From an uncultured Rikenella sp. (GTDB lineage Bacteria > Bacteroidota > Bacteroidia > Bacteroidales > VadinHA17): a stretch of DNA of 64,000 nt. This document shows positions 18,847 to 26,170 of the stretch, piece by piece. The stretch's first letter is position 1. Every line of letters starts with the position of its first letter. The stretch spans positions 43,145-107,144 of the forward strand of contig CAZAVK010000003.1 in assembly GCA_964488645.1 (NCBI GenBank). Reading direction: 5' to 3'. The position numbers and the translations under genes are program-made. The notes under the pieces are model-generated. The model did not search any database. It saw only the letters and a list, made by a program, of their open reading frames with translations, and had not been told where the DNA came from.

Positions 18847-20562
18847 ATGAAAAGAGTTAGTCTCATTCCTCTCATCTTAATTCTATCGGTTATGAACCTA
18901 TTCGGTCAGGGGCGCAACAGGCAGCCCGTTGTAGCCGGCAGTTTCTACCCTGCGTCGGGTGAGAAGCTCAGAGGCGACCTTGCAGGCTATTTTGCCTCTT
19001 TCAGTGCACCGGGCCGCAGTGCATTGATAAGGGCAATCATCGTTCCGCATGCCGGATACATTTATTCAGGACACACCGCTGCCGCCGGTTTTGCCGCCAT
19101 CCCTGCCGAGGCGGAGTATGACAATATCTTCCTAATCGGGGTGAGTCACCGGTACGGCTTTGACGGGGCTGCAGTCTTCACCTCGGGTGACCTGGTCACC
19201 CCGCTGGGCACCCTCAGGGTCAACCGTGAGCTGGGCGAACAACTGAAATCGACCGGCAAGTGGTTCATCACCAGGGATGATGCTCACGGGCCGGAGCACT
19301 CACTGGAGGTACAGTTGCCCTTCATACAGTACCACTTTAAAAAGGTGCCTCCGGTAATCCCGATTCTTATCGGCACCCGCAATACCAACATTCTGAAGGC
19401 ATTGGCTACCAGCCTGCAACCATGGTTCAATGAGCGCAATCTCTTTGTCATCAGCAGTGATTTCTCACACTACCCCTCATACGAGGATGCCCGTTATGCT
19501 GACCGGCTCGCCAGTGATGCCATCATCAGGGGCGATCCGAACGGTTTCCTGCGCACTATAAGAGAGATTGAGTCATCGGGTACCGCCGGCCTTGTCACCG
19601 CCATGTGCGGCTGGCCGGCAGGACTGGTGCTGCTTTACATGACAGAGAAGAGCGAGGGGCTCCGGTTCCGCAACGTCGAGTACACCAACTCGGGCGATTC
19701 GCCGATCGGCTCCCGCAGTGAGGTGGTGGGATACAATGCCATTATACTCGAGAAAAGAGGCGGCAGCGACACCGGCAGCGATGCCGCGAGTGGAAGACCG
19801 GGCGGGGCAGCCTCCACAACTGCCACGGGTTTCCGGGGCAGCATGCCACGAGGCCCGTTTGCCTACTCCGGCACAGATAATTGCCGTGAGAGCGGCAGCC
19901 GTCCGGCTGCCGCGACCGGTCCGATGAGCGGGGATACCCATCTCTCCGCCACGGCATCAGACCGATCTGCCCCGTGGCTGACCGCCGCCGGCGAGCCCTT
20001 CACCCTCACTCCGGCTGAGAAGAGGACGCTGCTGGAGATTGCGCGCGAATCGATCATGGCACAGCTGGATGGGCGCAAGCCGGCAGCCGTGTCTGAGGCG
20101 AGGCTTACGCCGAAGCTGAAGGAGCCACTCGGCGCCTTTGTGACCATCACGAAGAAGGGGCAGCTCAGAGGATGTATCGGCCGGTTCACCGCCACCGAGC
20201 CCCTGTGGCTGGTGGTCTCAACCATGGCCGGCGAGGCAGCTTTCAGTGACCCGCGGTTTACCCCGCTGAAAAGGTCTGAGTATCCCTCCATTGAGATTGA
20301 AATATCGGTCCTGGGACCGATGCAGAAGATCAGTGATATCAGTGAGATCCGGCTGGGTCATCACGGCATCTATATCAGAAAAGGCTACCGTTCAGGCACT
20401 TTCCTCCCCCAGGTGGCTGACGGACGCGACTGGAGCACAGAGGAGTTCCTGAGTTACTGCTCACGTGATAAGGCCGGCATCGGATGGGACGGCTGGCGTG
20501 ACAAGGATACCGAGATCTTTGTCTACGAAGCACTGGTCTTCAGTGAAAAGGAGACCCCATGA
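18847..20562 (+). CDS. fused AmmeMemoRadiSam system protein B (Memo-like) and protein A (AMMECR1-like), with an N-terminal signal peptide
   Basis: Signal peptide MKRVSLIPLILILSVMNLFGQG. The Memo part has VAGSFYPAS, IIVPHAGYIYSG, EHSLEVQLPF and SSDFSHY. A roughly 90-aa low-complexity G/S/A/P/T linker follows. The AMMECR1 part has GAFVTITKKGQLRGCIGRF and FSDPRF. Confidence 0.85.
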   Translation: MKRVSLIPLILILSVMNLFGQGRNRQPVVAGSFYPASGEKLRGDLAGYFASFSAPGRSALIRAIIVPHAGYIYSGHTAAAGFAAIPAEAEYDNIFLIGVSHRYGFDGAAVFTSGDLVTPLGTLRVNRELGEQLKSTGKWFITRDDAHGPEHSLEVQLPFIQYHFKKVPPVIPILIGTRNTNILKALATSLQPWFNERNLFVISSDFSHYPSYEDARYADRLASDAIIRGDPNGFLRTIREIESSGTAGLVTAMCGWPAGLVLLYMTEKSEGLRFRNVEYTNSGDSPIGSRSEVVGYNAIILEKRGGSDTGSDAASGRPGGAASTTATGFRGSMPRGPFAYSGTDNCRESGSRPAAATGPMSGDTHLSATASDRSAPWLTAAGEPFTLTPAEKRTLLEIARESIMAQLDGRKPAAVSEARLTPKLKEPLGAFVTITKKGQLRGCIGRFTATEPLWLVVSTMAGEAAFSDPRFTPLKRSEYPSIEIEISVLGPMQKISDISEIRLGHHGIYIRKGYRSGTFLPQVADGRDWSTEEFLSYCSRDKAGIGWDGWRDKDTEIFVYEALVFSEKETP

Positions 20563-22982
20563 CCTATCATGTCTTTCCAATCGGGATGACCTTTCTGGTC
20601 ATCTACCTCTTTTCGGCATACCTGTCATCTGCCGGATTCATTACCCGTGATTTGCACCGCCGGCTCTGGAACTGGTTTCTGCTCATCGGGTTCCTCACAG
20701 CAGGTATGTCGGGCATCTTCCTGGCTCTCAGGGCCAACTACCGCTGGGAGCTCCCTTTCACCGAGCAGTTGCTCCACTGGCATGTTGAGGCGGGTGCCAC
20801 AATGGTTGTACTGGCTGTCATTCACCTTATCCGTCACTTCAGGTATTATTCCGGGAGGAGCGGCAATGCCGTGTCTGCTGCTGCCTCTCCTCCTCCGGCA
20901 GCCGATCCCGCGGTTGCCGGCCGTCTAAGGCCGCTTCTGCTGCTTATAGGATTTGTCAGCTCCTCGGCGCAGTTTATCATGATGCGTGAGGCGGCCATCC
21001 TTGGTGGCGGCACCGAGGCCACTGCAGGGCTCTATCTCTGGCTCTGGCTCATCATCGCTGCCGGCGGGGCCCTGGCCGGCAGGCACTCTTCAACCGGTTC
21101 GGTGAAAAGGATGGTATGGACTCTTCTGGGGGCCACTGCCCTGGCCCCTGCCGCCTTCATAATGATGAATCTCATTATCCTCAATCCCGGCGAGACTCCC
21201 TCGCTGCTGCAGTCGGTGATCATCATTGCTGTCAGTGTTGCTCCGGTCACATTTCTGTCGGCCCTCATCTTCGTCCGCCTCTCCGACATAAGGCAGCAAG
21301 CAGGTCTCTCGGCTGCCGGCGGCAGCTTCGGCGCAGAAACAGCCGGATCGGTGGCAGCCGGCCTCTTCACCGCCCTCACGGTGTCACTGAAGATTCCCAA
21401 CTACCAGCTTTATATCCTGATCCTGCTCCTCGCCTCAGGCTGCGCAGCCTGGCTCCTGGGCTACCCCTTCCGGACAAGGATCATTGTCCTTCTGTCACTG
21501 ATACCGCTGCTGATACTGATTCTTATCTCACGGCCTGACCGGGTATTCAGGAGCCTGCTGCTGCAGGGTATAGTGGCAGAGAAGAGCATTGACACCCCGT
21601 TCGGCAATATCACCACGGGCAGTTACGGGGGTGAACAGGTTGTCTACTATGACCACCGCCCCCTCTTCTTTGAAGATGACATCATTACTGCTGAAGAGAA
21701 CATACATTATGCTCTCCTGCAACGGAGCAGCTATGACAGCGTGTTGCTTATCTCAGGCGGTCTCCGCAGGCATCTCCCCCATCTGGAGGCGTATCCGGTC
21801 AACTCCCTCACCTACCTGGAGATGGATCCCGGACTGATAGCAGCAGAAGGTGCCGCTGACACCCTCTGCGGAACGATGCGGGTCAGGGTTGTCAGAGATG
21901 ACCCCGTGACCTTCCTGAGAAAGGACAGAACTAGGTACGATGCCGTCATTCAGCTGATCCCTCCCCCATCAACGCTGTCAGTCAACAGGTTCTACACCAT
22001 TGAGTATTTCCGCATGATCAGGGATCACCTCTCGCCCGGGGGCATCTTCATGTCAACACCCATGCCCTGGTACAGCTACTCTCCTGAGAGCTACCGTAAG
22101 GGTTTCTCTCCGCTCTTCAACTCCCTCTCGGAGGTCTTCAGCCATATCTCCCTGATACCTGGCTCATTGCTCTACGTGGTAGCTTCAGATGATACGGTAA
22201 CCTCATCAGTGGTCCGGCTGAGCGATGAGAGAGGTGGCCCCGGAGAGTGGGTCAACCGTGACTACCTTGATGACAATGAGATAGAGCGGAACGCCGGGAA
22301 GGTACTGCTTCAGATTGACCGCGATGCCGGGCTGAACATGGCACTCAGGCCAAGGAGCACCCTCTTCACCAGTCTCCTGTCGCTTGAGCAGAGAGGGTTG
22401 CGCGGAGGAGCCATTGCCCTGCTAACGTTGCTGATAGTGATACCCTTTCTCTTCACAGGCAGGGGCGGATATGTGATGTTTGCCTCTTCAGCAGGCCTGG
22501 CAGGTTTCGGCATGATCATGATATTCATGCTCCAGGTGGTTGCAGGCAATATCTATATCCTCTCGGCGGTGATACTCACGCTGCTCATGGCCGGACTGGC
22601 TGCCGGGGCGGCGCTGGGTGACCGTATGCGGCTGCAGAGGCTTCTCACATGCTCTATGCTGCTATTCGCCCTCTTCACCGCCGCCGGTATGCTTGCCCCG
22701 CGCCTTATCACCATGGCGCCCCTGCCGGTGATGGCATTCATCATTATCTCCCTGACGGCAGCCGGAATCCTTACCGGTTCCATCTACCGCATACTTACCT
22801 CACGCAGCAAGGAGAGCATCACCGGCAATATCTATGCAGCCGACATGGCCGGATCAGCCCTGGGGTATCTCACTGCCGCCACCCTCATTGTTCCCCTGGC
22901 AGGCATGGCCGATGCATGCTTCATCATGGCACTGAATGTTTTGATTGCCGGTATTGTTGCATCTGTAACAAGAAAAGAGTAG
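20559..22982 (+). CDS. polytopic membrane protein (about 16-17 TM by eye) with a central spermidine-synthase-like (SAM-fold) domain
   Basis: 807 aa. About 10 hydrophobic segments come first, then a ~300-aa soluble region (VLLISGGLRRH...LEMDP...VRDDPVTFL...YDAVIQLIPPPS...FYTIEYF...LSPGGIF) resembling SpeE with its motifs degenerated, then 6-7 more TM segments. ATGA overlap with the upstream gene. Confidence 0.7.
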   Translation: MTYHVFPIGMTFLVIYLFSAYLSSAGFITRDLHRRLWNWFLLIGFLTAGMSGIFLALRANYRWELPFTEQLLHWHVEAGATMVVLAVIHLIRHFRYYSGRSGNAVSAAASPPPAADPAVAGRLRPLLLLIGFVSSSAQFIMMREAAILGGGTEATAGLYLWLWLIIAAGGALAGRHSSTGSVKRMVWTLLGATALAPAAFIMMNLIILNPGETPSLLQSVIIIAVSVAPVTFLSALIFVRLSDIRQQAGLSAAGGSFGAETAGSVAAGLFTALTVSLKIPNYQLYILILLLASGCAAWLLGYPFRTRIIVLLSLIPLLILILISRPDRVFRSLLLQGIVAEKSIDTPFGNITTGSYGGEQVVYYDHRPLFFEDDIITAEENIHYALLQRSSYDSVLLISGGLRRHLPHLEAYPVNSLTYLEMDPGLIAAEGAADTLCGTMRVRVVRDDPVTFLRKDRTRYDAVIQLIPPPSTLSVNRFYTIEYFRMIRDHLSPGGIFMSTPMPWYSYSPESYRKGFSPLFNSLSEVFSHISLIPGSLLYVVASDDTVTSSVVRLSDERGGPGEWVNRDYLDDNEIERNAGKVLLQIDRDAGLNMALRPRSTLFTSLLSLEQRGLRGGAIALLTLLIVIPFLFTGRGGYVMFASSAGLAGFGMIMIFMLQVVAGNIYILSAVILTLLMAGLAAGAALGDRMRLQRLLTCSMLLFALFTAAGMLAPRLITMAPLPVMAFIIISLTAAGILTGSIYRILTSRSKESITGNIYAADMAGSALGYLTAATLIVPLAGMADACFIMALNVLIAGIVASVTRKE

Positions 22983-23014
22983 ATTTATAGCCGGGGATCA
23001 GAACCTTCAATCCA

Positions 23015-24133
23015 TTGAAAAAGAAAGATAACAAGATAAGCAGGAGAACTTTTGCCCGGCGCGGATCACTGGCCCTGGCAGCCGGGGTCGTTGCTCCGTT
23101 TCCTGCCGGTGCCCTGAGGCCTGCACCTGCCGAGCGGCTCGCCATGTTCCAGGAGCAGAGCCCGCGGGGAGTGGTATGTCTCATCTGCCCGAATGCCTGT
23201 ACTCTCAAGGATGGCGAAGTGAGTGACTGTCGCAACCGGATAGCCAGGAAATCAAAGCTTTATACCATGGCTTTCGGCAATCCATGTGCTATCAACATCG
23301 ATCCTGTCGAGAAGAAGCCGCTCTTCCATTTCCTGCCTGGAACAACCTCGTTTTCCATTGCTACTGCCGGGTGTAACCTGTCATGTCTCAACTGCCAGAA
23401 CTGGACCATCTCACAGACCTCTCCCGACAAGACCCGTAACTATGACATGCCTCCTTCGAGTGTGGTGTCTGAGGCTGCCGCGGCGGGTTGCCGCACCATC
23501 TCATATACCTACTCCGAGCCGGTCACATTTTACGAGTATGTTTATGAAACCTCCAGGCTGGCGCACAGTGCCGGCATCCGGAACATCATGGTCTCCAACG
23601 GCTATATCAACCACGACCCGCTGAAGCAGCTCTGCCGCTATATCGACGCAGCAAATATCGATCTCAAGTCATTCAGTGACAGCACCTATCTCAAGCTCAC
23701 CGGGGGCCGGCTGCAGCCGGTACTGGATACTCTGAAGACCTATCGCGATGAGGGTGTCTGGCTTGAGATCACCAACCTGATCGTGCCGGGCTGGACAGAC
23801 AAGCCGGACGAAATCAAACGGTTATGCAACTGGCTGGCAACAAACGGTTTCAGTGAGACGCCCCTCCACTTCAGCCGCTTCCAGCCACTCTATAAGCTGG
23901 AACACCTCCCCCCGACACCGGCGGCCATCCTGAAGAAAGCAGCCGAACTCGCTGCAGCAGAAGGAATCAGATATGTCTATATCGGCAATATGCCGGGCGC
24001 CGGCGCAGAGGATACGATCTGTCCCTCCTGCGGGAACAGACTGGTTGACCGCAGCGGGTTCAGGATCGTATCATCCGCCATCAGGAACGGAAAATGCAGC
24101 TGTGGCACCAGTATACCAGGGGTGTGGAGCTGA
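23015..24133 (+). CDS. AmmeMemoRadiSam system radical SAM enzyme (AmrS). The annotated TTG start adds a Tat-type signal; the alternative start is ATG 23144.
   Basis: An N-terminal Cys cluster VVCLICPNAC...DCRNR and the radical SAM motif GCNLSCLNCQNW. The N-terminal 43 codons encode MKKKDNKISRRTFARRGSLALAAGVVAPFPAGA. Confidence 0.8.
   Translation: MKKKDNKISRRTFARRGSLALAAGVVAPFPAGALRPAPAERLAMFQEQSPRGVVCLICPNACTLKDGEVSDCRNRIARKSKLYTMAFGNPCAINIDPVEKKPLFHFLPGTTSFSIATAGCNLSCLNCQNWTISQTSPDKTRNYDMPPSSVVSEAAAAGCRTISYTYSEPVTFYEYVYETSRLAHSAGIRNIMVSNGYINHDPLKQLCRYIDAANIDLKSFSDSTYLKLTGGRLQPVLDTLKTYRDEGVWLEITNLIVPGWTDKPDEIKRLCNWLATNGFSETPLHFSRFQPLYKLEHLPPTPAAILKKAAELAAAEGIRYVYIGNMPGAGAEDTICPSCGNRLVDRSGFRIVSSAIRNGKCSCGTSIPGVWS

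Positions 24134-24157: not shown

Positions 24158-26170
<2,013 letters not shown>

Follow-up and report, generated by a model that had tools for sequence, protein, structure and literature searches.

Our analysis of a 64-kb stretch of DNA from an uncultured Rikenella sp. (contig CAZAVK010000003.1; hereafter the window) indicates that amrS, which encodes the radical S-adenosylmethionine (SAM) enzyme of an AmmeMemoRadiSam system, begins with a conserved N-terminal extension bearing the sequence features of a twin-arginine translocation (Tat) signal. The gene (open reading frame [ORF] 23015-24133, + strand, 372 amino acids [aa]) is the last of a three-gene operon, and its extension co-varies with export and membrane features of both partner proteins, a Memo-AMMECR1 fusion and a large membrane protein. 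The reading that we favor, with a probability of roughly 0.65, is that AmrS is exported by Tat within a periplasmic AmmeMemoRadiSam system. Since AmrS has a conserved twin-arginine signal and both partners have export or membrane features, extracytoplasmic work is probably what the entire system is built for. What we infer from sequence comparison, as discussed below, is that transport depends on Tat, where the signal is cleaved, that the enzyme ends up in the periplasm and by which route electrons arrive.

The amrS frame is closed upstream by a TAG, and its first start codon is the TTG at 23015, which leaves an intergenic gap of 32 nucleotides (nt) to the stop codon of the preceding gene (22980-22982). 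Between this TTG and the ATG at 23144 there are zero further in-frame ATG, GTG or TTG codons. The elements of the gene are as follows.

22988-22990, + strand: in-frame TAG closing the frame 5' of the start, read from the sequence
23015-23017, + strand: TTG start codon of amrS, the first in frame, 32 nt past the upstream gene's stop
23015-23038, + strand: n-region MKKKDNKI, with four Lys and one Asp (sequence and homologue alignment)
23039-23059, + strand: twin-arginine motif S-R-R-T-F-A-R, residues 9-15, with R11 and F13 invariant
23063-23113, + strand: h-region and c-region GSLALAAGVVAPFPAGA, residues 17-33, with a predicted signal peptidase I site between A31-G32-A33 and L34
23114-23143, + strand: linker LRPAPAERLA, joining the predicted cleavage site to the folded core, with a low predicted local distance difference test (pLDDT) score
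23144-23146, + strand: first ATG (codon 44, Met44), an alternative start in some gene callers, at which P0001 begins
23144-24133, + strand: AmrS catalytic core and stop codon (TIGR04337; AlphaFold2 fold from about residue 41)
23177-23230, + strand: N-terminal Cys cluster C55, C58, C62 and C72, four invariant columns
23372-23395, + strand: radical SAM motif C120-x3-C124-x2-C127, invariant columns among 24 homologues
24020-24103, + strand: C-terminal CxxC...CxC (C336, C339, C361 and C363), invariant columns

Codons 1-43 thus read MKKKDNKI, SRRTFAR and RGSLALAAGVVAPFPAGA, followed across the predicted cleavage site by LRPAPAERLA. An earlier sequence-only reading of this DNA had placed the closing TAG at 22988-22990, taken the TTG at 23015 as the first usable start and the first ATG as codon 44, and described a Lys-rich n-region, S-R-R-T-F-A, a 17-residue h-region and AGA followed by L; all of these coordinates were verified and all of these elements are present.

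Comparison of the DNA with six independent relatives (76-82% protein identity) indicates that the extension is translated. The TTG is invariant in all six and lies at the same position, although the 30-nt spacer that precedes it is scrambled (among them L001, L002, L081, L083 and L084 share the position despite differing spacers). In 15 pairwise comparisons of these relatives by Nei-Gojobori counting, the proportion of nonsynonymous differences (pN) in codons 2-43 was 0.13-0.31 versus a synonymous proportion (pS) of 0.57-0.79, with synonymous sites saturated; pN in the AmrS core was 0.06-0.15. An alignment of 24 diverse, independently called homologues showed that the extension, its linker included, differs in length by whole residues, and that R11 and F13 do not vary. 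Because the TTG is invariant beside a scrambled spacer, change is synonymous-biased and length differences are whole residues, the extension is coding, and codons 2-43 are under purifying selection. The sequence-only reading had supposed that so complete a signal would hardly arise by chance, and that a translated extension should show protein-level conservation with synonymous bias and no frameshifts in relatives. The pN and pS values and the whole-residue length differences, with no frameshift among the homologues, agree with that expectation, and the argument from chance is borne out decisively by conservation, and also by the occurrence of a single [ST]RRxF[LIVMA][KRQ] site in the six-frame translation of the window. 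That reading had noted neither the export or membrane features of the two operon partners nor how widespread the signal is in the family.

The same N-terminus recurs among the 120 closest homologues, all of which come from Bacteroidales-type metagenome bins: 107 begin with an [RK]R-x-F motif and then an h-region (82 RR, 24 KR and 1 RK), 2 more have RR with a weaker h-region, and the remaining 11 are shorter calls whose first residue falls inside or just past the signal.

Such shorter calls bear on the choice of start. It is very improbable that translation begins only at the ATG at 23144, with the 129 nt upstream forming an untranslated leader conserved for some other cause. ATG is the preferred start codon, the TIGR04337 model begins nearby, and one gene caller picked this ATG (P0001, 329 aa, 100% identical, starting at Met44). 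These points are set against amino-acid-level selection on codons 2-43, the invariant TTG, the whole-residue length differences, an intergenic gap that would widen from 32 to 161 nt, and the many orthologues without an ATG at the aligned position. Since 372-aa and 329-aa calls are both on record for this exact gene, gene callers disagree, and those that prefer ATG remove the signal. Both starts could nevertheless be in use in the window genome, giving an exported and a cytoplasmic form. We considered Met44 as a conserved second start and rejected it: the residue falls on the [LM] position of EA[LM][FY], a motif in the first strand, and the aligned position is L, I, S or R in many signal-bearing orthologues. 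Conservation at Met44 is explained by the first strand of the fold, which lies there. Also rejected was an antisense ORF (22924-23235, - strand, 103 aa) that overlaps the signal-coding region and is probably spurious; the substitutions fit the + strand frame.

The translated extension has the features of a Tat signal, as judged by motif, charge and hydropathy. Its first 16 residues hold four Lys and four Arg, and the 17-residue h-region consists of Ala, Gly, Val and Pro, with two Pro. Its motif is the only [ST]RRxF[LIVMA][KRQ] site in the window. In the clade of 372-aa proteins an [AS]-x-A site is kept (AGA, SGA or SAA, each followed by M) and then [MLI]-[RK], corresponding here to A31-G32-A33 followed by L34-R35. 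The AmrS h-region was less hydrophobic than the Sec signal of its operon partner in 44 of 45 operons (mean maximum 11-residue hydropathy of 1.85 for AmrS versus 2.84 for the partner, Wilcoxon p = 9e-8; 2.18 in the window AmrS). AlphaFold2 places residues 1-40 apart from the fold (pLDDT 37-56), with a lone helix at residues 10-24, and the fold itself starts at about residue 41.

Whether the signal is removed after export is a separate matter. The extension might instead serve as an uncleaved anchor, with AmrS inserted by Tat in an N-in/C-out orientation as in Rieske proteins and tethered to the inner membrane on its outer side, beside the 17-helix membrane protein. A dedicated membrane partner would suit such a membrane-bound complex, plain N-terminal membrane anchors occur in the relatives P0123, P0122 and P0148, and AmrS is without the Gln+1 of Bacteroidota signal peptidase I substrates, which its partner has (PMC5837995). 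We consider this arrangement unlikely, as a 17-residue h-region with two Pro and a mean hydropathy near 2 would be weak for a stable membrane helix, and the [AS]-x-A at -3/-1 is conserved in the closest clade.

The predicted cargo also suits Tat. AmrS matches the AmmeMemoRadiSam radical SAM enzyme model TIGR04337 with 335.6 bits (cut-off 220) over residues 51-371, and PF04055 with 73 bits over residues 116-270. In addition to the CxxxCxxC motif, we infer from the invariant columns that C55, C58, C62 and C72 bind an auxiliary metal or iron-sulfur (Fe-S) site and that C336, C339, C361 and C363 form a zinc ribbon or a further cluster site. An enzyme with these three Cys clusters would be expected to take up Fe-S before transport.

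The two partners encoded upstream of amrS have export or membrane features of their own, located as follows.

18847-20562, + strand: Memo-AMMECR1 fusion (AmmeMemoRadiSam proteins B and A), first gene of the operon
18847-18906, + strand: Sec-type signal peptide MKRVSLIPLILILSVMNLFG of the fusion, followed by Gln21, which fits the Bacteroidetes Q-rule
20559-22982, + strand: 807-aa membrane protein with 17 predicted helices, second gene of the operon, with a 4-nt overlap with the upstream stop
20559-20861, + strand: DUF4405-like three-helix module, residues 1-101, with H33, H75, H89 and H93 (PF14358, E = 2.5e-4)
21573-22313, + strand: SpeE-fold domain (residues 339-585 of the membrane protein) with a predicted periplasmic orientation (Foldseek; loop charges)

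The fusion scores over the cut-offs of both TIGR04336 (222 bits) and TIGR04335 (171 bits), with matches to PF01875 and PF01871 as well, and the arrangement of the Memo-AMMECR1 and AmrS genes is kept in relatives. Its signal ends as expected under the Q-rule, by which Gln+1 marks signal peptidase I substrates in Bacteroidetes (PMC5837995, PMC10653852).

We compared 80 related genome loci, 64 with a Tat-type AmrS and 16 without the extension (three automatic calls were corrected by eye). A signal peptide was present on Memo-AMMECR1 in all 44 scorable Tat-type loci, nearly always ending in [GSA] followed by Q, and was clearly missing in 8 of the 13 scorable loci without the AmrS extension. A membrane gene lay directly upstream of amrS in 55 of the 64 Tat-type loci versus 0 of the 16 others; among the nine Tat-type loci without an adjoining membrane gene, three were unscorable (less than 300 nt of upstream sequence) and one had the gene 2 kb further up. 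Extension and membrane gene are absent from the cytoplasmic-type loci of related Bacteroidota, and the Memo signal is absent from most of these as well (for example L064, L066-L068, L073, L074, L079 and L080); two loci (L051 and L062) were ambiguous in feature scoring. The AmrS extension therefore co-varies with export and membrane features of both partners. At L027 (952-2770), a second, divergent pair of AmrS (38% identity) and Memo (26%) genes lies directly upstream of the exported-type operon and may be a cytoplasmic paralogue system.

Structure prediction for the membrane protein, with an AlphaFold2 model built from database homologues, gave 10 + 7 helices around a globular SpeE-fold domain (pLDDT 78, predicted template modeling score 0.79). 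Among the 50 Foldseek matches listed, only the SpeE-fold domain was matched (1uir, 3anx and 6bq2, E from 1e-10 to 1e-8), with none for the membrane part; PF01564 likewise recognized the fold (29.1 bits versus a cut-off of 22.9). Over about 50 orthologues, Lys and Arg amounted to 19.0 in odd loops versus 3.9 in even loops, and the SpeE-fold domain is predicted to be periplasmic because its loop is on the Lys/Arg-poor side. The domain is, as judged by its motifs, not a canonical aminopropyltransferase: SpeE GGGEG is replaced by S-G-G-L-R-R and D-L-A-D-P by Q-L-I-P-P-P-S, with loss of the catalytic Asp, and all NCBIfam SpeE models scored far under their cut-offs for this protein. We therefore rejected the name "spermidine synthase", used in some sources, given the replaced GGG[DE]G motif and catalytic Asp and the SpeE scores under cut-off. 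Residues E421 and D423 are invariant, and a profile alignment puts both at the SpeE acidic motif (CDID) after the second strand, which we take to be the ribose-binding position.

At its N-terminus the membrane protein has a module of three helices, not six, that resembles DUF4405 and in which H33, H75, H89 and H93 are each at least 90% conserved. DUF4405 proteins bind haem b and have been proposed to pass electrons to extracytosolic proteins (PMC11334425). One close relative (L083, 3524-5968) has two called ORFs, of 376 and 426 aa, in place of a single membrane gene, which may reflect a frameshift, an assembly error or a real split.

Export features are widespread in the AmrS family beyond the clade of the window, as far as sequence and gene order can indicate. 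An exhaustive search of 1.84 billion cluster representatives returned 1402 relatives at E < 1e-30, and of the best 150, which were inspected, about 30 had textbook RR signals (for example MSTTRRRFLAAAAG, SRRDFIKK, GRREFLARAAG and TRRDFLGA). Two distant lineages with RR signals repeat the pairing seen here: L086 (P0121) has a Tat-AmrS gene and then a signal-bearing Memo-AMMECR1 gene, and L087 brings together a signal-bearing Memo-AMMECR1, a Tat-AmrS and a 788-aa SpeE-like membrane gene. AmrS, AMMECR1 and Memo also occur as single polypeptides in three domain orders (P0196, P0192, P0236, P0123 and P0130), which speaks for the three proteins acting together in a shared compartment. One of these, P0123, also has an N-terminal membrane helix.

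Other fusions link AmrS to redox modules. Five cluster representatives (P0131, P0135, P0143, P0146 and P0159; 46-51% identity) are FMN_bind-AmrS fusions, and all five have the flavinylation (ApbE) motif D-x-[IV]-[ST]-G-A-T. Two of the five, P0135 and P0146, have a single N-terminal helix, which puts FMN_bind and AmrS on one and the same membrane face. In P0135 and P0146, the two for which loci were fetched, the genes overlap an upstream membrane gene of the DsbD_2+Fer4_5 (NapH-like) type; P0143 has all four modules in one protein, and P0125 and P0138 are DsbD_2-AmrS fusions. The FMN_bind-AmrS loci are the following.

L092, 658-3785: FMN_bind-AmrS locus
L093, 6455-9600: FMN_bind-AmrS locus
L094, 3207-6352: FMN_bind-AmrS locus

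These independent architectures tie the AmrS family to machinery that moves electrons across the membrane.

Some neighboring genes of the distant lineages deserve mention in their own right. In L086 (7104-11909), the Tat-AmrS and Memo-AMMECR1 genes are followed by genes for a GT4 glycosyltransferase, a histidine phosphatase, a START lipid-binding protein and an alkaline ceramidase, which hints at a lipid-related role. At L089 (4260-10089), a Tat-type AmrS (P0152, SRRDFIKK) occurs without nearby Memo or AMMECR1, next to a SPASM radical SAM gene, PMT-family glycosyltransferases and a BNR/Ycf48-like beta-propeller gene.

The fusions and the co-variation bear on another alternative, that the extension is translated but serves no export, either as a vestigial Tat-like peptide of the kind known from NarG or as a helix that docks a cytoplasmic AmrS on the membrane protein. 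On that account the problem of supplying SAM and reductant in the periplasm vanishes, and the lone helix at residues 10-24, the KR rather than RR in most Bacteroidota orthologues, and the two loci that pair a signal-bearing Memo with an extension-less AmrS (L065 and L070) would be accommodated. We nevertheless hold it to be quite improbable: the h-region and AxA site are intact rather than decayed; the Sec signal of the partner in 44 of 44 scorable loci would put in separate compartments proteins that are fused elsewhere; the eight basic residues near the start favor an N-terminus inside and the rest out; and the FMN_bind-AmrS fusions carry flavinylation motifs.

Under the preferred reading, Tat export of AmrS, the protein would be translated from the conserved TTG at 23015, with residues 1-33 as its twin-arginine signal peptide, and would fold and acquire its Fe-S clusters while still in the cytoplasm. 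The folded enzyme would then cross the inner membrane through the Tat translocase, and signal peptidase I would probably cleave it after Ala33. Outside, AmrS would meet the Memo-AMMECR1 fusion, which Sec would export in the unfolded state by means of a cleavable signal of its own, and the 17-helix protein with its putatively periplasmic SpeE-fold domain. The haem-type DUF4405-like module is a candidate electron route, in place of which relatives have FMN_bind, NapH-like or DsbD_2. Because AmrS, the fusion and the outward-facing domain would meet outside, the locus would encode an extracytoplasmic version of the AmmeMemoRadiSam system.

A more far-reaching proposal, which we offer tentatively and at somewhat less than even odds, is that this radical SAM system, as the first of its kind, operates extracytoplasmically, with AmrS at the outer face of the inner membrane, drawing electrons from a membrane module and using an adenosyl co-substrate that is exported enzyme-bound or handled by the SpeE-fold domain. 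With the same tentativeness, the electrons would be supplied by a DUF4405-like cytochrome b in this operon, and in sister clades by modules of the NapH-like, DsbD_2 or flavinylated FMN_bind type.

Several points weigh against Tat export into a working periplasmic system, the first of them chemical. Radical SAM chemistry requires SAM and a low-potential electron, and we know of neither SAM nor such an electron source in the periplasm. A b-type haem is usually too oxidising to reduce a radical SAM cluster, and the supply of SAM to an extracytoplasmic AmrS is a further difficulty. The DUF4405-like module itself falls short of the Pfam cut-off: PF14358 gives 21.9 bits versus 26.7, with residues 37-93 aligned to positions 2-65 of the 66 in the model. 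It is also missing from about half of the orthologues of the membrane protein.

A second group of points concerns the signal. The 52-residue N-terminus had no match to TIGR01409 or PF10518 at E up to 10, and its sole model match was TIGR02811 (formate dehydrogenase Tat target, E = 0.082); curated Tat-signal models are very short, with weak matches lost in the HMMER filters, and we treat this null result as a limit of the models. When the window was scanned for tatA and tatC motifs, neither gene turned up, a result that says little because the window is about 2% of a genome. In about 55 of the 64 signal-bearing loci (L004-L063, most of the Bacteroidota and Ignavibacteriota loci) the twin-arginine position is K-R (for example SKRDFLKK, NKREFLK), with R-R in the window's own clade and in distant phyla. 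AmrS is without the Gln+1 that its operon partner has, so its cleavage is uncertain.

The third group concerns the comparison among loci. Besides the mismatched pairs at L065 and L070, the AmrS N-termini of L075, P0128 and P0146 are strongly hydrophobic, without RR and Sec-type in appearance, and an Fe-S protein should not tolerate Sec-type export. The co-variation was counted without phylogenetic correction and may reflect few evolutionary events; in a rough neighbor-joining tree, too crude to count gains and losses, the Tat-type sequences formed three or more blocks, and Fitch parsimony required a minimum of 8 changes. A further variant among the AmrS N-termini is the motif RNRFLG of P0132.

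Parts of this picture are already known, namely Tat signals, the AmmeMemoRadiSam system and the long form of AmrS in public gene calls. The association of Memo, AMMECR1 and a radical SAM protein is credited, in a passage of PMC7159879, to Burroughs et al. 2019 (J Biol Chem 294:10211). The window operon resembles the cytoplasmic AmmeMemoRadiSam system (TIGR04335, TIGR04336 and TIGR04337) in that the three families occur in one operon, with scores over the cut-offs and Cys motifs intact. Unlike that system, its AmrS has a Tat-type signal, its Memo-AMMECR1 fusion has a Sec-type signal, and a 17-helix gene is inserted between them.

Tat-exported Fe-S proteins include hydrogenase small subunits, DmsB, FdnH and NrfC. 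AmrS is like these in having an S/T-R-R-x-F signal on a protein that would load Fe-S before transport, but they are respiratory electron-transfer subunits, and to our knowledge none of them is a radical SAM enzyme or uses a SAM-like co-substrate. The closest solved relative by sequence is pyruvate formate-lyase activating enzyme (PDB 3c8f, 8fo0; E = 1.6e-9 over residues 116-275), which shares the radical SAM core but differs in being cytoplasmic and 245 aa long, without a signal and without the extra Cys clusters.

Flavinylation-associated systems of extracytosolic electron transfer (FMN_bind/ApbE, NapH-like and DUF4405; PMC11334425) offer a parallel for the putative electron route. The window operon has a DUF4405-like module with four His, and sister AmrS clades share with these systems the FMN_bind flavinylation motif and DsbD_2+Fer4_5 neighbors; unlike in the published systems, the DUF4405 match here is under the Pfam cut-off and has three helices rather than six. 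In full-text literature pairing both terms, we found no published link between flavinylation systems and a radical SAM enzyme. Radical SAM chemistry is tied to a periplasmic product, as it would be here, in anSME, which acts on sulfatases, and in HxsB/C, with the periplasmic effector HxsA (PMC13128918). In those cases the enzyme stays cytoplasmic and the substrate is exported, whereas AmrS itself has the export signal. Full-text literature searches aimed at this topic turned up no account of a radical SAM enzyme that is exported, or of an operon of this type; Burroughs et al. 2019 was beyond reach and may mention signal peptides.

Radical SAM enzymes depend on SAM, on an electron of low potential and on shelter from oxygen, and are generally held to be cytoplasmic. 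That view is challenged by a large and conserved set of AmrS proteins that have export signals, exported partners and conduit-like membrane neighbors. If the export reading is true, either the periplasm of these anaerobes has SAM and a strong reductant or AmrS leaves the cytoplasm pre-loaded for a single turnover. Relatives of Memo and AMMECR1 are linked to human disease, and the search for the unknown function of the Memo-AMMECR1-radical SAM association would be narrowed, in these bacteria, to a substrate located at the inner membrane or outside it, such as a lipid or some component of the envelope.

Around the operon (window 24164-26170 and around), argS and a SiaC-family gene lie on one side and ligA, a DUF6913 gene and secA on the other, with ligA beginning 30 nt past the amrS stop. 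Because the operon sits among housekeeping genes in conserved order, this setting points to a stable core function and away from a mobile element. In the window the Memo-AMMECR1 fusion has 571 aa, as against 481-520 aa in close relatives; the surplus separates its two domains, at about residues 300-390, and is a linker of low complexity made up of Gly, Ser, Ala, Pro and Thr.

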